NCBI GenBank assembly: GCA_947038265.1
Contig: CAMQVP010000001.1
Location: 60,968 to 124,967 of the forward strand
Source of the DNA: an uncultured Roseburia sp.
Lineage (GTDB): Bacteria; Bacillota; Clostridia; Lachnospirales; Lachnospiraceae
Length of the DNA: 64,000 nucleotides
Direction of reading: 5' to 3'
Both the position numbers and the translations under genes were made by a program. Each line of letters starts with the position of its first letter. Position 1 is the first letter of the stretch. Positions 37,386-47,164 of this stretch are shown piece after piece. Below the pieces are notes generated by a model. The model searched no databases. It saw only the letters and a program-made list of their open reading frames with translations, and had not been told where the DNA came from.

Positions 37386-39230
37386 ATGCAAACAAACCAG
37401 ATATTCGAAAAAAGATTATCCTGCCGGCATGATGAACTGCGCTGGCTCTATATGGAACTCTATGGAAACCCTTCCATGTTTGCCGAACTTTGTGACAATA
37501 TGTTTCAATTTTACAAGGAACGCAGGCGCGAATTAAAAGCGCGTGATTCCCTGCGTGAGACGGAACCCGGCTGGTATAAAAAAAACGACCTGTTGGGCAT
37601 GATGTTCTACATCGACAATTTTGCCCAAAACCTGACAGGCGTGGAAAAAAAACTGGATTACATAGAGCAGTGCAGCGTCAACTATATCCACCTTATGCCC
37701 TTTTTAGAAACGCCGGACGGCCGTTCTGACGGCGGCTATGCCGTTTCCGATTTTAGGACTGTAAAAAAAGAACTTGGAACCATGGAAGATTTGGAACGCC
37801 TGACTTTTGCCTGTCACAAAAAAGGAATCCATGTCTGCATGGACTTTGTCATGAACCATACATCGGAAGACCATGAATGGGCAAAAAAAGCGCGGCAGGG
37901 CGACGGGGAATATATGAGCCGCTACTTCTTTTATGACAACTATGAAATACCGTCCCAATACGAGCAGACTGTCCCACAAGTCTTCCCGACAACGGCGCCC
38001 GGAAACTTCACATGGCTAGATGACTGCAGACATTACGTTATGACAAGCTTTTATCCCTACCAATGGGACTTAAATTATAAAAATCCAAGAGTTTTTAACG
38101 AAATGATCTACAACTTCCTGTTTCTGGCAAATAAGGGAATTGACATTATCCGTCTGGACGCCGTCCCTTATATATGGAAGGAATTACACACAAACTGCCG
38201 AAACCTGCCACAAGCGCATACCATCGTGCGTTTAATGCGGATTATCAGTGAAATTGTCTGCCCGAGCGTCTTGCTGCTTGGTGAAGTCGTTATGGAACCG
38301 GAAAAAGTCGTTCCCTATTTTGGGACTGTGGAAAAACCCGAATGCCATATGCTCTACAATGTAACGACAATGGCCGCCACATGGCATACGGTAGCCACAA
38401 GAGACGTCCGCCTGCTGAAACGCCAGCTTGACATTCTCCATTCCCTGCCAAAAGAATATATTTTCTTAAACTACCTAAGATGCCATGATGACATTGGCTG
38501 GGGTCTTGACTATCCTTCCTTAGAAAAAGAGGGATTTGCCGAAATTCCCCACAAACAATACCTAAATGACTATTTCAGAGGATTAGCGGGAAACAGCGTC
38601 AGCCGCGGAGAGCTCTACAATGACGACCCCGTGACGAAAGACGCAAGATTCTGTGGCGCAACCGCGTCTATGTGCGGCATAGAAAAAGCGGGATTTGAAC
38701 AAGATGATAACGCCATGGCAAAGGCTATTCAACTTGATCTCATGCTCCACGCCTGTATGTTTATGCAGTCAGGAATCCCGATGCTTTACAGTGGCGACGA
38801 AATTGGCCAAGTCAATGACTATTCCTACAAAGAGAACCCAAAAAAAGCAGGCGACTCGCGTTATCTGCATCGGGGCGCCATGAACTGGACGCTTGCCAAT
38901 CGCATAACTGATTTAAACACAGTGGAAGGGAAACTTTTTCATGGGCTTGAGCTGTTAGAGCAAATCAGGAAAACGGAACGCGTCTTCTGCGCAGAGGCAG
39001 ACGCAAGAACCGTAGAAACACAAAACAACGCGATCCTTTCTATCGAGAGGTCTTATGGCGGGGAAACGCTTATCGGCGCATTTAATTTCAGCGAAGATGA
39101 AAAAACAGCATGTTTAAACGCGCCGGACGGCATTTATACTGACTTAATTTCAGGCGGGGATAAGACCCCGGATTGTCTCCGGCTTATGCCATATGAATTT
39201 TGCTACCTGAAAAAGAGGAAACTTTCATGA
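37386..39230 (+). CDS. cytoplasmic GH13 alpha-amylase-family enzyme (amylosucrase / sucrose-utilising glucanotransferase-like)
   Basis: 614 aa with no signal peptide. GH13 regions ...VCMDFVMNHTS..., ...GIDIIRLDAVPYIW..., ...LLGEVVME... and ...FLNYLRCHDDIGWG... are present. Its length and N-terminal helical domain resemble amylosucrases. Confidence 0.7.
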   Translation: MQTNQIFEKRLSCRHDELRWLYMELYGNPSMFAELCDNMFQFYKERRRELKARDSLRETEPGWYKKNDLLGMMFYIDNFAQNLTGVEKKLDYIEQCSVNYIHLMPFLETPDGRSDGGYAVSDFRTVKKELGTMEDLERLTFACHKKGIHVCMDFVMNHTSEDHEWAKKARQGDGEYMSRYFFYDNYEIPSQYEQTVPQVFPTTAPGNFTWLDDCRHYVMTSFYPYQWDLNYKNPRVFNEMIYNFLFLANKGIDIIRLDAVPYIWKELHTNCRNLPQAHTIVRLMRIISEIVCPSVLLLGEVVMEPEKVVPYFGTVEKPECHMLYNVTTMAATWHTVATRDVRLLKRQLDILHSLPKEYIFLNYLRCHDDIGWGLDYPSLEKEGFAEIPHKQYLNDYFRGLAGNSVSRGELYNDDPVTKDARFCGATASMCGIEKAGFEQDDNAMAKAIQLDLMLHACMFMQSGIPMLYSGDEIGQVNDYSYKENPKKAGDSRYLHRGAMNWTLANRITDLNTVEGKLFHGLELLEQIRKTERVFCAEADARTVETQNNAILSIERSYGGETLIGAFNFSEDEKTACLNAPDGIYTDLISGGDKTPDCLRLMPYEFCYLKKRKLS

Positions 39231-40225
39231 ATGTATCTGACATTGCAAAATTAGCAGGCGTATCTAATTCCGCTGTTTCCCGCTACTTTAATCACGGATA
39301 CATCTCACAAGAAAAACGGGAAGCTATCCGCAAAGTCGTAGAGGAAACCGGATACCGCCCTTCCGTACAGGCGCAGACCCTTCGGACAAAAAAGACAAAT
39401 ATGATAGGCGTTATCGTCCCGAAAATCGCTTCTGCTTCGATCGGAAAAATTGTAGAAGGAATCCTTTCTGTCCTAAATAAGAGCAACTATCAAATGCTGC
39501 TTGCCGTTACGGAAAACGACCCGAAAAAAGAGTTAGAATATCTGTTATCCTTCAACAGAAAACAGGTAGACGGCCTGATACTGGCAGCGACCGTTTTTTC
39601 GGAAGAACATAAGCGCCTGCTCAAACACTTAACTGTGCCCGCCGTCATCACCGGACAAAAGCTTCACGGGCAGTTTTGCGTTTACCATGACGACTACCAT
39701 GCCGCCTATGACATCACAGAATATGTCTTAGAGAAAGGAAAGAGAAACCTAGCCTACATGAATGCAATCCTTTCTGACGAAGCGGCAGGGGCAAAACGTT
39801 ACCGCGGATACTGCGATGCTGTGCGGGACAGAGGCTTTGAAGCTCTTGCCGGCCAGCATATTACCGCAGACTTTACCGTAATTTCCGGCTATGAAAAAAC
39901 AAGAGAGCTCCTATCGCAGTATCCTGGTTTGGACGCCATTCTCTGCGCCACGGATTCCATGGCGGCAGGAGCTATGCAGTTCCTTGCCGAACATGGAATA
40001 ACCGTACCGGATCAAATACTCGTTACGGGACAAGACGACTCGGATATTGCGAGAGTTACATCTCCGCCGATTATTACAGTACATTATTCCTTTGAGACAT
40101 GCGGCGAAACTGCAGTCCGGATGCTTTTAGAACAAATAAACCAAAAAGACGCCGCTCCAAAAGAAGTAAAGCTCGGCTACTCTATTACTGATTATCAAAC
40201 AAAGGAGAACCCCTATGACAAATAA
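39227..40225 (+). CDS. LacI family transcriptional regulator
   Basis: MNVSDIAKLAGVSNSAVSRYFNHGYISQEKREAIRKVVEETGYRPS... is a helix-turn-helix followed by a periplasmic-binding-protein-like domain. The ATG overlaps the stop codon of the GH13 gene. Confidence 0.85.
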   Translation: MNVSDIAKLAGVSNSAVSRYFNHGYISQEKREAIRKVVEETGYRPSVQAQTLRTKKTNMIGVIVPKIASASIGKIVEGILSVLNKSNYQMLLAVTENDPKKELEYLLSFNRKQVDGLILAATVFSEEHKRLLKHLTVPAVITGQKLHGQFCVYHDDYHAAYDITEYVLEKGKRNLAYMNAILSDEAAGAKRYRGYCDAVRDRGFEALAGQHITADFTVISGYEKTRELLSQYPGLDAILCATDSMAAGAMQFLAEHGITVPDQILVTGQDDSDIARVTSPPIITVHYSFETCGETAVRMLLEQINQKDAAPKEVKLGYSITDYQTKENPYDK

Positions 40226-40853
40226 CGAAAGACGAGACTTAAATCTGCCTTATATCACGGACGATTCCGTTTTAAATGAACAAAAAACAGCCAGAAGGCT
40301 GACGCAGATATTAAACACAACTGACCGTTCGGACTTTGACGCTATAAAAAACATAGTCAAAGAATTATTTGGAAAATCGGAAAACGCTTTTGTCAATCCG
40401 CCCTTCTACTGCGATTATGGAAAAAACATTGAAGTCGGCAAAAACTTCTATGCAAATTACAACTGCACCATTTTAGATGTGGCAAAAGTCATGATCGGCG
40501 ACAACTGTATGCTTGCCCCGAATGTGGCGATTTACACAGCCGGCCACCCTGTACATCCGCTTACCCGCAACACATTATATGAATATGGCATAGAAATCAC
40601 GATTGGCGATAATGTCTGGATTGGTGGAAACACTGTCATCTGTCCCGGCGCGCATATTGGAAGCAATACTGTAATTGGCGCAGGAAGCGTCGTGACGAGA
40701 GATATTCCTGACTATAGCATCGCCGCCGGAAATCCCTGCCGCGTAATCCGAAGCATTACCGATGCAGATAAAAAATTTTATTTCCGGGACTTAGAATTTG
40801 ACGAAGAAACATGGAAGGACGCGCAACAGCGGTTAAAAGAACCGCCTGTTTAA
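40215..40853 (+). CDS. maltose/galactoside O-acetyltransferase (hexapeptide-repeat, Maa/LacA family)
   Basis: ...NPPFYCDYGKNIEVGKNFYANYNCTILD...IGDNVWIGGNTVICPGAHIGSNTVIGAGSVV.... Confidence 0.8.
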   Translation: MTNNERRDLNLPYITDDSVLNEQKTARRLTQILNTTDRSDFDAIKNIVKELFGKSENAFVNPPFYCDYGKNIEVGKNFYANYNCTILDVAKVMIGDNCMLAPNVAIYTAGHPVHPLTRNTLYEYGIEITIGDNVWIGGNTVICPGAHIGSNTVIGAGSVVTRDIPDYSIAAGNPCRVIRSITDADKKFYFRDLEFDEETWKDAQQRLKEPPV

Positions 40854-40880: not shown

Positions 40881-40926
40881 TAAACCCCCTGAAACGTTAT
40901 ATGTTTCAGGGGGTTTACTTTTTTCC
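40881..40926. terminator. bidirectional rho-independent terminator
   Basis: AAACCCCCTGAAACgttatatGTTTCAGGGGGTTT followed by actTTTTTTcc. It lies between convergent genes. Confidence 0.8.
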
Positions 40927-40928
40927 AA

Positions 40929-41726
40929 TCAAACTTCTAAAAGCTTAGAAACGCTGCTTCTCTTTGCAACATACAAGGGAAAGTCCTCTCCTTTGTAGGG
41001 GCAAAGCCCCATACTGATTTCCAGTTTTACCGTTTCATATGCAAGCTCAGGATAATTATTTTCCTTGCTTAAATGCCCCAGCATAACCGCATGGACGTCA
41101 TCATGGAGGATTTCCGCCAAAAGCTGCCCACACCGCTCATTGGACAAATGTCCCCGTTCTCCGGAAATCCTCTGTTTTAAATAATAGGGGTATGAACCCG
41201 TTTGAAGCATATGTATATCATGATTTGCTTCTAACAGCAAAAGATGAATCCCCCTTAATTTTTCTACAATATAAGAGTTGTAATTTCCAAGATCCGTCAC
41301 AACTCCCGCCGATTTCCCTCTGCTTCTTATCACATACGCAACCGGATCTGCCGCATCGTGGGAAATGGAAAAAGGAGCAATTTCAAGTTCCCCCACCGTA
41401 AACGGTTCGTCCGGCGCAATGACATGGAACAGGCTTTCGTCAATTTTTCCGACAGACTTTGTATTTAAAATTGCCTGTTTCGTATTCTCTGTCGCATATA
41501 TGGGAACGCCGTATCTTCTGGCAATTACGCCAAGGCCGCCTATATGGTCAATATGCTCATGGGTAATTAATACGCCCTTCATTTCAGAAGTTTTATGCCC
41601 ATATTCATTTAAGCCCTGTTCAATTTTCCTTCCGCTGATCCCTGCGTCTATTAAAACGTGGCTGTTGGCGCTTCCCGCCATTATGCAGTTTCCACTGCTC
41701 CCGCTTGCAATGCTAAGTAATTCCAT
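40929..41726 (-). CDS. MBL-fold metallo-hydrolase (YycJ/WalJ-like)
   Basis: ...HVLIDAGISG...LITHEHIDHIGGLGV... is the HxHxDH motif; 265 aa. Confidence 0.8.
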   Translation of the reverse strand: MELLSIASGSSGNCIMAGSANSHVLIDAGISGRKIEQGLNEYGHKTSEMKGVLITHEHIDHIGGLGVIARRYGVPIYATENTKQAILNTKSVGKIDESLFHVIAPDEPFTVGELEIAPFSISHDAADPVAYVIRSRGKSAGVVTDLGNYNSYIVEKLRGIHLLLLEANHDIHMLQTGSYPYYLKQRISGERGHLSNERCGQLLAEILHDDVHAVMLGHLSKENNYPELAYETVKLEISMGLCPYKGEDFPLYVAKRSSVSKLLEV

Positions 41727-41729
41727 TGT

Positions 41730-44504
41730 TTAAGTCTCTTTCCAATAAATTTCCACTTCATCTCCACTGTAAAGCGGCTGCATATAGCCCGCGGAGTCTC
41801 CATTGACAGTCGTGACAATCGCCCGCCCCCTTGAGTCCGCCAGGTCAAAGTTTATAAAATCAAAAATATCGACAAATATATAGTCCATTTTTCCGGTAAG
41901 CGTCACGGGTTCCCCATTTACCGTAATCCGAATTGCGACCCATGGGTTTTGCGGATATCCGGCGTCTTCTTCCGGCTGTCCGCCCTTCTCTTTTGGTTCT
42001 TCTGATTTTTTCTCTAATTCATCAGACGGCTGTGGCGTAGGTAAGAGCTCTGGCTCTGTGTTTTTATCCTCAATCTGCGCTGACGCTTCTGGTTTTACGG
42101 CAATCACGGGCAGCGTTTCTTCATATTGTACGTTTAACACTTCCCAGTCTATTGTAAAATTCTCATAAATTAACGTCTGAAATCCGGCAGGGCGGTTATT
42201 CACAAGTATTTCAAAATCCATGTCGATTTCCACGTCCATAAATTCTGCAAGCTGCGCGATTGTATAGAAATTTCTCGTCTCGATGACGTCCCCTTCATGG
42301 ACTTCATAGGAAGAAAGTTCAATACTGCCGTTGACTTCTACAAATTTTGGACAGCGTATCGTCTTTCCATTGACAATAAACGTCACAGATTCTTCGGTAT
42401 AATCCGTTATATCTGCAAGCGTCACTTTTGCGGCGTCTCCCGCCGTTGACGGCTCAACTGTAATATAACTGTTTGCAATCAAAGGCGCGTTAATGTTCGT
42501 CAGTTTCCCGTTTACTTTGACAACCGCAGATTCCCCGGCTTCCCCTCTTGCAATCCTCGGGCTTCCGTTTACCGTAAAATTAATTTCCCTGCCCCGTTTT
42601 GGGAACAGATATTCATTTGGAAAGCCCGCCTGTAGCGCGGCGTCGACGATTGTCAAACGGTTATTGTCATACAATTTAATCCGTTCACCGTTAAAATGCA
42701 CCATAATAAAGCTATTCCGCTGTTCAAAATAATTTAAGCAAATGCCGACCGGCGTAACGAGCAGAGGATCTTTCTTCACTCCCGGCTGTTCAAATGTGAC
42801 TTGCCGCAGGACTTCTTCCCCGCGCAGCGCCACACGCTCATACGGAAGCTCCAGCTTATCCGCAAGCCTTGTGTCAAATCCATGCGCTTTTCCGCCGCCG
42901 CCGACAATAAACGCCGCCTTGACTGTCTCACCGCCGTTTAATTCGATAATTTTATCTGCAACTTCTGTCGTAATCCGCTCTACAACTTCGTCCGTCAGCT
43001 CCCAGACTTCTTCCGAGCTGATTTTATGGTCTAACATCATAATATCCGTATATTCCACCTCGCCCCCTAACGTAGAGGCCAGTTTCATATATTCCGCCAT
43101 TTGGAAATCGACCAGATACTTCTGGACAATGACTTCCGTTATCTCATCTCCCGCAAGCGGAATCATGCCATATGCGATAATGCTTCCGTCTCTTGTCACG
43201 GAAATATCGGACGTGCCCGCCCCCACGTCAATCAAGGCGATATTAAGCATACGGAAGTTTTCCGGTATGGCAATGTCAATCGCGGCAATCGGCTCTAATG
43301 TCATGTTCGCTACGGACAGACCGGCTATGCCGACTGCCGCATAAAGCCCGTCTATTACGTCTTCCGGCAAAAATGTGACAATAATGTCTTCCGCGATTTT
43401 TTCCGCCTTATGGCTTTCTATGCTTTGGAAAATTTCCCCATTCAAATAATATTTGACAACGGAATACCCGACACAGTAAAATTTGTAGTTCGTATCATTT
43501 TTTTCCTGAAGCTCTTTTTGGGCTTTTTCAATCCCTAACAAATCCAATGTATGAATATCTTCTGCAAGCACGACGCTTTCCACTTCAAAATCGTATTCGA
43601 TATGGGTCGTCACAGTCTTTAAGACACGTCCTGCCGCTGCGACGCAGACAGAAGTAAGCGTCTGGCCGATCTGATCTTCTAATGCTTCTTTTACACGGCG
43701 AATCGTATTTCCAACCCTTCCAATGTGATGAATCTGCCCATCTAACATTGCGCGCGTTTCATGTTCGATTGAATGCTGCGCAAGCACGATAAATTCTTTG
43801 TCAATCCGGTATCCGACTGTTCCGACGACATTACGCGTCCCGATGTCAAGACCGAATACCAAATCTTCTCCTATCTGCCTTTTTTCCATCTCACTGCCTC
43901 CTACCTCACCATGTCTGGCAAATGCTTTTTGAATTTCTTCATAAGCTTCTTCTAACGTACCGTTATTTTCAATCACGACAGCGCAATGCCTGCGGTACTC
44001 TGAATCAGAAAGCTGGCTCCCTAATATATCGTCAATTTTTTCATCAGAGTATCCTCTCGTTTCTTTTAGCCGTTTCCGCCGGATTGGTTCGGCTGCGTCA
44101 ATTAACCAAAGCTCATCACATATTTTATCATATCCTTCTTCAATTAAAAGAGCCGCTTCTAAAATAAAATAAGAATATATTTCCTCTTTTCGCTCTTTCT
44201 CGACAAGACGCAAAATTTCCTGCTTCACTGCGGGGTGGACGATTTTGTTTAGCGTTTCCCGTTTCCCGCTGTCAGAAAAAATGACTGCGGCAAGTTTTGC
44301 GGAGTCAAAGCCGCCTTCCTTAGTATAAATGTCCTCTCCTTCAAATGCGTCTTTGAGTTTCGCAAAACATTCAGAGCCGGACTGCATAAGCTCATGGGCA
44401 AGCTCGTCTGCCAAAACTATTTTTGCGGGATATTCCTGTTCTATATAACGCAGGATTTTCGACTTTCCGGCTCCTGCGCCTCCTGTGATTCCGATAAATT
44501 TCAT
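41730..44504 (-). CDS. coaE: dephospho-CoA kinase (CoaE) fused in frame to an FtsA-like actin-fold ATPase and tandem S4/ThiS-like beta-grasp repeats. These are possibly two genes joined without a stop codon.
   Basis: The N-terminus MKFIGITGGAGAGKSKI (P-loop) and the following region to about residue 200 look like CoaE. A GGAGG box (reverse complement of 43898-43903) lies 8 nt upstream of the internal ATG at 43889 (MEKRQIGEDLVFGLDIGTRNVVGTV). Downstream are the actin-fold phosphate-2 motif ALIDVGAGTSDISV and the adenosine motif FIVGGGGKAHG. The C-terminal 350 aa or so repeat x(V/F)NG...GD(V/E)IE about seven times. Confidence 0.6.
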   Translation of the reverse strand: MKFIGITGGAGAGKSKILRYIEQEYPAKIVLADELAHELMQSGSECFAKLKDAFEGEDIYTKEGGFDSAKLAAVIFSDSGKRETLNKIVHPAVKQEILRLVEKERKEEIYSYFILEAALLIEEGYDKICDELWLIDAAEPIRRKRLKETRGYSDEKIDDILGSQLSDSEYRRHCAVVIENNGTLEEAYEEIQKAFARHGEVGGSEMEKRQIGEDLVFGLDIGTRNVVGTVGYRIDKEFIVLAQHSIEHETRAMLDGQIHHIGRVGNTIRRVKEALEDQIGQTLTSVCVAAAGRVLKTVTTHIEYDFEVESVVLAEDIHTLDLLGIEKAQKELQEKNDTNYKFYCVGYSVVKYYLNGEIFQSIESHKAEKIAEDIIVTFLPEDVIDGLYAAVGIAGLSVANMTLEPIAAIDIAIPENFRMLNIALIDVGAGTSDISVTRDGSIIAYGMIPLAGDEITEVIVQKYLVDFQMAEYMKLASTLGGEVEYTDIMMLDHKISSEEVWELTDEVVERITTEVADKIIELNGGETVKAAFIVGGGGKAHGFDTRLADKLELPYERVALRGEEVLRQVTFEQPGVKKDPLLVTPVGICLNYFEQRNSFIMVHFNGERIKLYDNNRLTIVDAALQAGFPNEYLFPKRGREINFTVNGSPRIARGEAGESAVVKVNGKLTNINAPLIANSYITVEPSTAGDAAKVTLADITDYTEESVTFIVNGKTIRCPKFVEVNGSIELSSYEVHEGDVIETRNFYTIAQLAEFMDVEIDMDFEILVNNRPAGFQTLIYENFTIDWEVLNVQYEETLPVIAVKPEASAQIEDKNTEPELLPTPQPSDELEKKSEEPKEKGGQPEEDAGYPQNPWVAIRITVNGEPVTLTGKMDYIFVDIFDFINFDLADSRGRAIVTTVNGDSAGYMQPLYSGDEVEIYWKET

Positions 44505-44515
44505 ACTGTCTCCTG

Positions 44516-47164
44516 TTATTTGGCTTCGTACCAGTTTTTTCCGGTGTGCATGTCAATCTCTAAATCAACCGACAAATCTGCCGCGCCCTGCATTTCTTCC
44601 ATTAGAATCTGTTTGACTTGCGCAAGCTCATCTTCTCTTGCTTCGATTAACAGTTCATCATGCACCTGTAAAATCAATTTGGATTTCAGCCCGCTCTTTG
44701 CCAGACGGTCATGGACGCGTATCATTGCGATTTTAATAATGTCTGCCGCAGTTCCCTGAATCGGCGCATTCATTGCGACGCGTTCGCCAAACGAACGCTG
44801 CATAAAATTGCCGGACGCCAGCTCCGGCAGGGGCCTTCTTCTTCCAAACATCGTTAAGGAGTATCCGTTTTCTTTTGCCGATGCCACCAGCCCGTCCAGA
44901 AATGTTTTTATCTTCGGATACGATTCAAAATAACGTTCGATATATTCCGCGGCTTCTTTTTTGCTAATGCTTAAATCTTGGCTTAAGCCAAAAGAACTGA
45001 TCCCGTACACAATGCCAAAATTAACCGCTTTTGCGTTTCGCCGCTGTAAATCCGTCACTTCCTCAAACGGCGTATGGAATACCTGCGATGCAGTGATTCT
45101 ATGAATGTCCTCCGCCTGGCGGTAAGCCTGAATCAGCGTTTCATCTTCCGACATATGCGCCAGCACGCGCAGTTCAATCTGGGAATAATCCGCATCGACA
45201 AAGACACAGCCTTTGGCCGGAAGGAACACCTTTCGGATTGATCTGCCAAGTTCCATGCGGATCGGGATATTCTGTAAATTCGGGTCCGCGCTGCTGATCC
45301 TTCCCGTCGCCGTAATCGTCTGATGGAACACGCTGTGAATCCGCCCTGTTTCATCAATGAAGTTTGCCAATCCGTCCGCATATGTGGATTTTAGTTTCGT
45401 AAGCTGGCGGTATTCTAAAATATCCGCCACGATAGGATGCTCTGCGGCAAGTTTCTCCAAAACGTCCGCCGCCGTGGAATAGCCTGTTTTGGTTTTTTTG
45501 CCGTTTGGCATTTTTAACTTTTCAAATAATATCACGCCTAACTGTTTCGGTGAATTAATATTAAACGTCTCTCCCGCCTGCGCGCAAATGCTTTTCTCTA
45601 ACGCTTCTATCTTTCCAGACAAACTCCTCCCATATTCGGCAAGGGCGTCCCTGTCCGCCGCAATGCCTTCACGTTCCATGGAAGACAGCGTATAGACAAG
45701 CGGAAGCTCTATTTCTTCATATAATTTGAGCATATCCGTTTCTTTCAGCCGTTCGGTTAAACGTCCTCTTGCGTTCCACGCTGTATACGCCATATAGCAG
45801 GCAAATGTCAAAAATGCGTCTTGCTGTTCTTCCACAGCCGCTTTTAAGCTTGATTTCCCCAATAAATCTGCCTGCGATAACAGCATCAGGCCGCAGACGT
45901 CTTTTGCAATCTCTACATAGGTATACTCGCTTTGCAGTGGATTTAACAAATAGGCTGCAATCCCGCAATCAAACAAGCGCTTACGGATCGCGCCGTCCGC
46001 TTCGGGAAGCTCTAAAAATTTGATATGCGGCTTTAAATCCAAAAAAGACACGTCTGCCTGCATTGTGATTTCTTTTAGCTTCTCTTTTAAATACGCCTCC
46101 GTTAAAAAACCTCCGACCAAAAGAAACGCCGTCTTATCTTCCGTATAGCAAATGGAAGCCCCAAGAAACTCCCCGTCTTCCACAAAACACGCCATGCCAA
46201 GCGCCCCGTTTTCTTTTGCATTCGCCAGAAATTCTTCCGCCTGCGTAAAATCGCTGATTATTTGGAAATACGTTTCCATCTGGTTTTTCGGCGCGTCTAA
46301 ATCAAAGCGGCCCAGCATCTTTTTAAAATCGAGCTTCTTGCAAAGAAGATACGCTTCTTCCGTATAAAAATCTTTTACTATTGCATCTTCGAATGAAAAA
46401 TCAATCGGGACATTCACGTCAATCGTCGCAAGCGTTTTCGAAAGCTGCGCCATATCATAGTGGTTTTTTAAGTTTTCTTTAGCGCGGTTTGGCTTAATTT
46501 CATCTGCATGGGCATACGCATTTTCTATGCTGCCGTATGCGGCAATCAGATTCGTCGCCGTCTTTTCCCCGATTCCCGCCACGCCCGGAATATTGTCCGA
46601 CGCATCGCCCATCAGCGCCTTTACGTCTATAAATTCTGACGGCGTGACCTGATACCGTTCCTTCACGTCTTTGGCAAAATAGTCTTCAATTTCCGTCCCC
46701 GTTTTCTTCGTTTTCGGGATTCTGATTTTTACGCGGTCCGTGGCAAGCTGAAGCAAATCCCTGTCGCCGGATACGACAGACACAAAAAAACCCTCATTTT
46801 CTGCGCGTTTTGAAAGCGTCCCCAGCAAATCATCTGCTTCAAATCCTGCTAACTCTACGGTTTTTATGCCCATTGCCGCCAGCATTTCTTTCATCAGGGG
46901 CACCTGCTCTTTTAGTTCTTCCGCCATCGGCTTTCTTGTGCCTTTATATTCCGGATACATCGTATGGCGGAACGTCGGCTCATGCACGTCAAAAGCAACC
47001 GTCAAATACTCCGGCTGCTCCTCGTCTAATATTTTAAATAAAATATTTAAAAATCCAAACACTGCATTTGTATGGATTCCCTCGGAATTGGTCAAATCCC
47101 GCACTCCGAAAAACGCGCGGTTTAAAATACTGTGTCCGTCGATTAAAACTATTTTTTTACTCAT
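44516..47164 (-). CDS. polA: DNA polymerase I
   Basis: 882 aa. The 5'-3' exonuclease N-terminus MSKKIVLIDGHSILNRAFFG..., the polymerase motifs ...RRNAKAVNFGIVYGISSFGLS... and ...LQVHDELLIEA.... It lies immediately upstream of coaE, which is the conserved polA-coaE order. Confidence 0.95.
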   Translation of the reverse strand: MSKKIVLIDGHSILNRAFFGVRDLTNSEGIHTNAVFGFLNILFKILDEEQPEYLTVAFDVHEPTFRHTMYPEYKGTRKPMAEELKEQVPLMKEMLAAMGIKTVELAGFEADDLLGTLSKRAENEGFFVSVVSGDRDLLQLATDRVKIRIPKTKKTGTEIEDYFAKDVKERYQVTPSEFIDVKALMGDASDNIPGVAGIGEKTATNLIAAYGSIENAYAHADEIKPNRAKENLKNHYDMAQLSKTLATIDVNVPIDFSFEDAIVKDFYTEEAYLLCKKLDFKKMLGRFDLDAPKNQMETYFQIISDFTQAEEFLANAKENGALGMACFVEDGEFLGASICYTEDKTAFLLVGGFLTEAYLKEKLKEITMQADVSFLDLKPHIKFLELPEADGAIRKRLFDCGIAAYLLNPLQSEYTYVEIAKDVCGLMLLSQADLLGKSSLKAAVEEQQDAFLTFACYMAYTAWNARGRLTERLKETDMLKLYEEIELPLVYTLSSMEREGIAADRDALAEYGRSLSGKIEALEKSICAQAGETFNINSPKQLGVILFEKLKMPNGKKTKTGYSTAADVLEKLAAEHPIVADILEYRQLTKLKSTYADGLANFIDETGRIHSVFHQTITATGRISSADPNLQNIPIRMELGRSIRKVFLPAKGCVFVDADYSQIELRVLAHMSEDETLIQAYRQAEDIHRITASQVFHTPFEEVTDLQRRNAKAVNFGIVYGISSFGLSQDLSISKKEAAEYIERYFESYPKIKTFLDGLVASAKENGYSLTMFGRRRPLPELASGNFMQRSFGERVAMNAPIQGTAADIIKIAMIRVHDRLAKSGLKSKLILQVHDELLIEAREDELAQVKQILMEEMQGAADLSVDLEIDMHTGKNWYEAK

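Follow-up and report, generated by a model that had tools for sequence, protein, structure and literature searches.

Dephospho-CoA kinases (CoaE) that carry additional sequence are known from mycobacteria, in which a complete kinase and an unrelated C-terminal region form one polypeptide of approximately 400 aa (NF002879, PDB 6n39). Actin-fold ATPases of the FtsA type (TIGR01174; PDB 1e4g, 4a2a and 7q6f) feature an inserted 1C-like domain and the phosphate-1, phosphate-2 and adenosine motifs, and PilM (TIGR01175; PDB 2ych and 5eou) belongs to the same actin-fold subclass. Beta-grasp domains with an NG turn and a GDxIE motif include ThiS/MoaD and TGS (PF02597, PF02824; PDB 3cwi, 1f0z, 1ryj, 2kmm and RelA 5l3p), and beta-grasp domains are arranged in tandem in bacterial multi-ubiquitin proteins, ISG15 and di-ubiquitin (PDB 9d5a, 9cd2 and 7s6p). 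Likenesses to all of these systems are found in one open reading frame (ORF) of the 64,000-nucleotide (nt) stretch of DNA analysed here, which is referred to as the window and derives from an uncultured Roseburia sp. (contig CAMQVP010000001.1, positions 60,968 to 124,967). The ORF lies on the minus strand at positions 41730..44504, starts with ATG and encodes 924 aa, in which CoaE is followed in frame by a second protein, referred to as X. In mycobacterial CoaE, the extension is another domain. In contrast, the sequence joined to CoaE in the window is a whole downstream gene with its own start signals, and X is fused to CoaE in only a minority of related species. The ORF is a genuine fused gene of Lachnospiraceae, and we consider it probable that the coupling of two genes has given rise to a CoaE-X polypeptide in addition to free X, and that X is a scaffold protein of the FtsA/PilM class with a ubiquitin-fold tail.

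The reading frame is open from the P-loop of CoaE (Walker A motif GITGGAGAGKS, residues 5-15) through ...FARHGEVGGSEMEKRQ..., without a stop, and thus the coaE frame does run on into a region of about 720 aa, as proposed in an initial annotation made from the sequence alone. The CoaE domain (residues 1-196; 43917..44504, minus strand) is matched by Pfam CoaE PF01121 (E = 6e-36, residues 3-185, 124.2 bits against a threshold of 27) and by TIGR00152 (residues 4-193), the score of which, 133.5 bits, is above the curated equivalog cutoff of 65.55. In an AlphaFold (AF2) model built on 35 homologues, which has a mean predicted local distance difference test (pLDDT) score of 73.8, the CoaE part has a pLDDT of 80-90 and is matched by Foldseek to CoaE structures with template modelling (TM) scores of 0.77-0.84 (4i1v, E = 1e-12, TMt 0.80). 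Judged by these profile and fold matches, residues 3-193 form a genuine CoaE. At the junction, the sequence is ...QKAFARHGEVGGSE-MEKRQIGEDLVFGLDIGTRN, and the fusion linker RHGEVGGSE (residues 197-205; 43890..43916, minus strand) holds an in-frame Shine-Dalgarno (SD) sequence, (A)GGAGG, at 43897-43901. Junction residues 200-213 have a pLDDT below 50 and are predicted to be disordered, and both the length and the sequence of the linker vary among fused homologues.

Species-representative genomes were scanned for stretches encoding a relative of the ORF, and the best 80 of 578 matching stretches were analysed. All 80 are of the Lachnospiraceae type (Roseburia, Agathobacter, Eubacterium, Pseudobutyrivibrio and Lachnobacterium). 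Two of them, L016 and L075, are labelled Senegalimassilia sp. and Alistipes sp., respectively, although they show the typical Lachnospiraceae gene order and 49-67% identity, and likely reflect binning contamination of metagenome-assembled genomes. Among 79 informative species-level loci, a stop codon separates coaE from X in 49, whereas the two genes are fused in 30. A protein search identified more than 100 full-length in-frame fused homologues with 58-98% identity, named “dephospho-CoA kinase” wherever the source gives a name.

Where the genes are split, the coaE stop codon ends anywhere from 75 nt before to 26 nt after the X start, and the commonest arrangement is an 8-nt overlap. Because the coaE stop and the X start always adjoin or overlap, a single-base indel or one stop-to-sense change suffices to fuse the two genes. 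For instance, fused L009 (...ALRRKQMNNN...) and split L050, in which coaE ends ...ALRREAYE* inside X, differ by a 1-nt indel, and L006 and L052 differ in the same manner. In contrast, fused L020 and split L011 feature CAA and TAG, respectively, directly before the ATG. In the closest split relative, L019, a sister of the clade of the window, CoaE ends ...KQAFAG*, equivalent to ...QKAFA in the window. Fitch parsimony on a neighbour-joining tree of the X core revealed at least 10 changes between the fused and split states, with a split root. On this sequence comparison, the fusion is real, was brought about by stop loss, is recurrent in Lachnospiraceae and is evolutionarily cheap at a translationally coupled junction.

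The start signals of X are retained in most fused genes. In the window, GGAGG at 43901..43897 (minus strand) is followed, after a 7-nt spacer, by an internal ATG at 43889..43887 (Met206), exactly where the initial annotation had placed a strong ribosome-binding site and a start codon. This ATG is the ancestral X start codon and is probably still used. Unfused homologues (P0030, P0042, P0059, P0085 and P0106) begin exactly at the Met206 equivalent (MEKKQLGEELVFGLDIGTRN). In 27 of the 30 fused loci, GGAG or GAGG is present at positions -16 to -4 ahead of a Met codon that lies no more than 30 residues from the VFGLDIGTRN motif, whereas 66 of 570 other internal Met codons (11.6%) in fused ORFs have such a sequence (binomial p ~1e-22, uncorrected for phylogeny). 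In fused clades, AARGGAGA and the ATG are constant, while the 2-3 codons between them vary freely (KGEVGQM, KGEGVLM, KGEMIQM, KGELSHM and others). Constant SD and ATG signals on either side of variable spacer codons are what selection on the start signals, as opposed to selection on the encoded peptide, would be expected to leave. L028 and L069, which are fused, have lost both the SD and the ATG of X; these are natural fusion-only variants, in which the fusion polypeptide must therefore supply X. Most fused genes, including the one in the window, thus probably make both CoaE-X and, from the internal start, free X.

The N-terminal part of X (residues 214-596; 42717..43865, minus strand) is an actin-fold ATPase of the FtsA/PilM type, into which a 1C-like domain is inserted. 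The motifs DIGTRN (residues 220-225), DVGAGTSD (426-433) and GGGG (535-538), from which an actin fold had been proposed, are invariant in 35 homologues, as are the nucleotide-binding residues D220, G222, T223, D426, G428, G430, T431, D433 and G535-538. Profile searches support this assignment, with E values of 1e-9 for Pfam FtsA PF14450 and 2e-18 for TIGR01174 ftsA (residues 216-531), and sequence matches in the PDB are led by FtsA (7q6f, E = 8e-8), followed by MreB, PilM and EutJ. Foldseek places FtsA first (1e4g, E = 3.8e-21, TMt 0.70) and PilM second (5eoy, E = 1e-16). Across FtsA chains of 370-388 residues, 405-417 columns are aligned, with TM scores of 0.67-0.75 and an identity of 14-18%. 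FtsA is therefore the best match of X in both structure and sequence, and PilM the second best in structure. X differs from FtsA in a beta-grasp tail of approximately 330 residues, which is also absent from PilM, and in its genomic context, which is the polA-coaE operon or other contexts outside the dcw cluster.

Downstream of the ATPase, eight [VIFL]N[GN] motifs occur at residues 604, 645, 664, 711, 724, 768, 862 and 900. The initial annotation had counted about seven short modules with an S4/ThiS-like signature. Instead, the eight motifs correspond to about four ThiS-like repeats, with four motifs in N-terminal hairpins and four in C-terminal halves, and these repeats are organized in three compact domains. 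D1 (residues 597-696; 42417..42716, minus strand) is a ThiS-like beta-grasp domain with an extra beta-hairpin and a pLDDT above 90. D2 (residues 697-792; 42129..42416, minus strand) comprises two partial repeats, D2a, which consists of a hairpin and a C-terminal half and has no helix, and D2b, which consists of a helix and a C-terminal half. An acidic, proline-rich linker (residues 793-854; 41943..42128, minus strand), predicted to be disordered (pLDDT 30-37), precedes D3 (residues 855-924; 41733..41942, minus strand), a complete ThiS/MoaD-like beta-grasp domain that ends ...GDEVEIYWKET, with no Gly-Gly. In a separate AF2 model of residues 596-924 (mean pLDDT 82.5, most residues at 90 or above), the topology is beta-beta-alpha-beta-beta. 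The predicted structure of the X region is thus an FtsA-type fold followed by beta-grasp domains.

Profile-profile alignments confirmed the ThiS-like nature of the repeats, as every piece of the tail is homologous to some part of D3. When compared by hhalign, D3 and D1 align with a probability of 97% (E = 1e-10) around an insert of about 20 residues, and the pieces also align separately; D2a and D2b align to D3 with probabilities of 97.4% and 95.3%, and to each other with 97.1%. In homologous segments, Pfam ThiS is matched in 6/28 for D1, 15/28 for D2 (best E = 1e-8) and 8/45 for D3. D2 segments additionally match TGS (8/28), Ub-Mut7C (7/28) and, weakly, S4 (2/28, E ~1e-3), and matches to ThiS, TGS and Ub-Mut7C occur in homologues of all three tail domains. 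The protein of the window itself has no Pfam ThiS match at E <= 1, and NCBIfam ThiS PRK08364 reaches an E value of 0.085. Comparison of the tail with PDB sequences, either as a single sequence or with a D3 profile, gave nothing significant. Foldseek searches with the whole tail returned tandem ubiquitin-like arrays first (9d5a, 9cd2, ISG15 and di-ubiquitin; E = 5e-5 to 7e-4), followed by ThiS and TGS. TM scores with the multi-ubiquitin proteins are only 0.16-0.29, however, and the repeated-domain character is all that is shared. Moreover, unlike multi-ubiquitin or Bub proteins, the X tail is attached to an actin-fold ATPase, and the neighbouring genes are housekeeping genes, with no Bub-type E1, E2 or peptidase genes nearby. 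PADLOC defence models gave no significant match, the best being PDC-M61B (E = 0.009, 12.7 bits), with no stretch passing alone, and X does not belong to the recognised defence proteins.

A sulfur-carrier or ubiquitin-like conjugation role of the tail was considered and rejected. Because the protein ends ...IYWKET, without Gly-Gly, the tail is not a conjugatable or sulfur-carrier ubiquitin-like protein; the X C-termini that were read end ...YWKE(N/T/E), ...YWEEN or similar, no E1-like gene (ThiF/MoeB) is found near X, and, in contrast to ThiS and MoaD, the domains lie in one polypeptide, some of them partial or carrying insertions.

The spacing between D1 and D3, and with it the disordered acidic linker, ranges from about 35 to about 585 aa among homologues. 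This variation was noted in homologues including P0068 and P0070, and in some homologues the linker is an SGSA-rich low-complexity repeat of approximately 450 residues. The variable acidic linker before D3 resembles the variable tether that precedes the C-terminal peptide of FtsZ.

X extends well beyond the fused loci. In an exhaustive HMMER search with residues 206-924, 3073 clusters (50% identity) pass E < 1e-3, and 674 pass E < 1e-30. Many are proteins of approximately 700 aa that match end to end with 33-50% identity. Named members are found in Clostridium cellulovorans, C. ljungdahlii, C. autoethanogenum, C. pasteurianum, C. carboxidivorans, Desulfofundulus and Savagea, and X is encoded as a separate protein in Clostridium, Desulfofundulus and Bacilli. 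Family-specific hidden Markov models detected D1 and D3 in approximately 98% of 410 members (D1 in 405/410). The D2 model, which is based on Lachnospiraceae, fails in some members, in which a D2-equivalent region is still seen, and the order D1-D2-linker-D3 is conserved across the family. Annotations of family members include “cell division protein FtsA”, “FtsA domain-containing protein”, “rod shape-determining protein”, “PilM” (for a Bacillus-class homologue) and “Hsp70”, all of which are similarity-based names. No paper on the X family or on the CoaE fusion was found in full-text literature searches, and no characterised member with this combination of ATPase and beta-grasp array was found, which agrees with the earlier view of an uncharacterised architecture.

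Gene neighbourhoods of X vary. Outside Lachnospiraceae, X does not lie beside coaE in the loci inspected. In three Clostridium genomes (L081/L082, L086 and L087), the genes after X encode an M20 peptidase and then an RluD-type pseudouridine synthase; a gene for a MurJ/SpoVB-like flippase adjoins these, and a UvrD-type helicase gene precedes X in two of the three. In C. cellulovorans, the MurJ/SpoVB-like flippase gene is on the opposite strand. In Desulfofundulus, X stands alone, and a Bacillus-class contig has aroA-ccpA on one side of X and ytxH-murC-ftsK on the other. Because the gene neighbourhood changes from clade to clade, no function was assigned to X from context. In L085, which is of the Lachnospiraceae type, an M20 peptidase gene is found a few genes downstream.

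The initial annotation had presented the gene as either a real three-part fusion or two genes run together through a lost stop codon or a sequencing error. According to the latter view, the missing stop would be an error of sequencing or assembly, with coaE and X being separate in this genome. Both other frames contain stops just before the SD (TGG TGA and AGG TAG), such that one indel could mimic a fusion, and many relatives are split. Nevertheless, 45 sequences from independent assemblies, forming a 98%-identical cluster, encode the same 924-aa fused product; the next relatives, L001-L003 (80%, 72% and 69% identity), are fused in the same frame despite diverged linkers; and fused forms are present in isolate genomes (Eubacterium plexicaudatum ASF492, on a 6.3-Mb contig, XBD2001 and X68). 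This orthologue evidence effectively refutes an error, which we regard as extremely improbable. What had been called a three-part fusion is indeed one ORF, but, given that X is a standalone protein of approximately 700 aa in most Firmicutes and that its start signals are kept in nearly all fused loci, it is no purpose-built three-part protein and is a recurrent, probably near-neutral, stop-loss fusion. Alternatively, the fusion may be functionally selected, in the Rosetta-stone sense, with CoaE and X cooperating and the long isoform being active; for instance, X might position the final step of CoA synthesis or regulate it, or the beta-grasp domains might sense a CoA-related nucleotide. The two genes are immediate neighbours in essentially all the Lachnospiraceae loci examined, as well as in the genome of P0270, the fused state arose or persisted in about 10 lineages across deep clades, and two lineages make do with the fusion protein, having lost the internal start. 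Such selection is nonetheless rather unlikely, as most species (49/79) keep the genes separate, X is not beside coaE outside Lachnospiraceae, the linker is short or variable and disordered, fused forms have kept the SD and ATG, and one cheap mutation at the overlapping stop and start suffices. Several points weigh against a neutral, coupling-derived fusion accompanied by a free X scaffold. Independent fusions that recur could point to selection on the physical link; the number of switches is approximate, as it comes from a rough neighbour-joining tree; internal initiation is deduced from conserved sequence, and the 27/30 statistic is uncorrected for shared ancestry; the AF2 model shows no confident packing between domains (pTM 0.47-0.49); X is without the C-terminal amphipathic helix of FtsA, its actin fold being followed by beta-grasp domains and its C-terminus being a predicted beta-strand; and the neighbours of X differ between Lachnospiraceae, Clostridium and the Bacillus class.

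The absence of this helix also bears on whether X could be a bona fide FtsA or PilM, acting in Z-ring anchoring or in type IV pili, with the beta-grasp tail replacing the membrane helix. FtsA and then PilM are the best matches in structure and sequence, database names point to both, and envelope genes of the MurJ/SpoVB-like and LytR types are found close to X in some genomes. However, X falls far short of the equivalog cutoffs (TIGR01174, 66.6 bits versus 175.85; TIGR01175 PilM, 41.5 versus 133) and likewise of that of PRK09472 (32.2 bits versus 409), identity to solved FtsA structures is low, and family members have approximately 300 extra residues. Furthermore, neither ftsZ nor the dcw genes adjoin X at any inspected locus; its neighbours are polA-coaE and the MBL gene in the window and in 75-76 of the 80 loci, ftsZ is not beside X in the Clostridium, Desulfofundulus and Bacillus-class loci, and pilN, pilO and pilQ are not neighbours of X at any inspected locus. 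We give this identity a low probability. Even less likely is the view that the C-terminal modules are RNA-binding domains of the S4 type, as in YlmH, and that X is an RNA- or ribosome-associated ATPase. The motif xVNGxxv....v..GDxIxv is common to S4 and ThiS-like domains, two D2 segments match S4 weakly, and TGS is among the top fold matches of the tail. In the protein of the window, however, Pfam S4 (PF01479) yields a non-significant E value of 0.37, ThiS, TGS and Ub-Mut7C dominate the Pfam matches of D2 (15, 8 and 7 of 28 segments), the predicted topology is beta-beta-alpha-beta-beta, and each of the repeat pieces can be aligned to the profile of D3, which is ThiS-like. Since no S4-fold protein is present among the matches listed in either fold search of the tail, the S4 assignment and the analogy with YlmH made in the initial annotation were abandoned, while its CoaE and FtsA assignments were borne out. 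A bolder possibility, which we also hold to be unlikely, if less so than a true FtsA or PilM, is that X founds a new class of actin-family scaffolds, in which an FtsA-like ATPase carries a tandem ubiquitin-fold array with the terminal domain on a flexible tether and serves in a hitherto unrecognised role, for example, in the organisation of the envelope or the division site, and that in part of the Lachnospiraceae one ORF deliberately encodes both CoaE-X and, through a conserved internal start, free X. If so, the class would be widespread in Clostridia and some Bacilli, and CoaE-X would anchor the final CoA-synthesis enzyme on the scaffold.

Under the preferred reading, a coupling-derived fusion in addition to free X, single-base indels or stop-to-sense changes have brought the coaE and X frames together repeatedly, with a short disordered linker at the join. 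The fused ORF would most likely yield a CoaE-X protein of approximately 105 kDa and, by internal initiation, free X of approximately 81 kDa, and CoaE would keep its normal enzymatic role in the fusion. By analogy with FtsA and PilM, X may bind ATP and self-associate, and it could act as a cytoplasmic scaffold that docks partners via its ubiquitin-like domains, chiefly the tethered terminal one. The partners would be proteins or possibly RNA. TGS domains, which are also beta-grasp folds, bind RNA in RelA and ThrRS, and RNA binding through a TGS-like surface of the tail is possible. The fusion to CoaE would then be a tolerated by-product of gene overlap and translational coupling, and probably not a new catalytic unit.

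These data have a bearing on how both proteins are annotated. Hundreds of Lachnospiraceae genes annotated as “dephospho-CoA kinase” encode CoaE linked to a 720-residue protein that belongs to a different family, and thousands of “cell division protein FtsA” genes in Clostridia fail most of the FtsA features tested, namely, the equivalog cutoff, the membrane helix and the ftsZ/dcw context. The locus also shows clearly how single-base changes can switch coupled, overlapping genes from split to fused and back while internal start signals are kept. X itself is the more interesting object: this large actin-family protein is widespread and conserved, occurs in gut and industrial Clostridia, is unstudied and is systematically misnamed in databases. 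Its role is directly testable, as the tractable hosts C. ljungdahlii, C. autoethanogenum and C. pasteurianum carry X.

In the window, the fused gene belongs to a tightly packed operon on the minus strand. The polA gene, encoding DNA polymerase I (44516..47164, 882 aa), ends 11 nt before the coaE start. The pairing of polA and coaE was correctly noted in the initial annotation. The polA equivalent in L085 features the Pfam domains 5_3_exonuc and DNA_pol_A. Downstream, a gene for a metallo-hydrolase of the MBL fold (40929..41726, 265 aa) has its ATG 3 nt past the fused stop (41726-41732). This protein has NCBIfam MBL-fold matches, none of them at an equivalog cutoff. The order pepP-polA-coaE-X-MBL is kept in 75-76 of the 80 loci, polA being directly upstream in 75 and the MBL gene directly downstream in 76. 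The products of these operon partners are cytoplasmic. The pepP stop and polA start overlap by 4 nt (47161-47164), and the extremely tight spacing throughout suggests that the whole operon is translationally coupled.

The operon is closed by a terminator-like hairpin at 40881-40917, the 17-bp stem of which is usable in both directions. The hairpin lies between the MBL gene and a convergent gene on the plus strand (40215-40853) encoding a protein similar to maltose/galactoside O-acetyltransferases, the member of the adjoining sugar-utilisation cluster (37386-40853) to which a profile check was applied. By eye, the first ORF of this cluster, of 614 aa, looks like a GH13 enzyme of the amylosucrase or sucrose-phosphorylase type. 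The start of a LacI-family regulator gene overlaps the end of this ORF, and the O-acetyltransferase gene, in turn, overlaps the end of the regulator gene.

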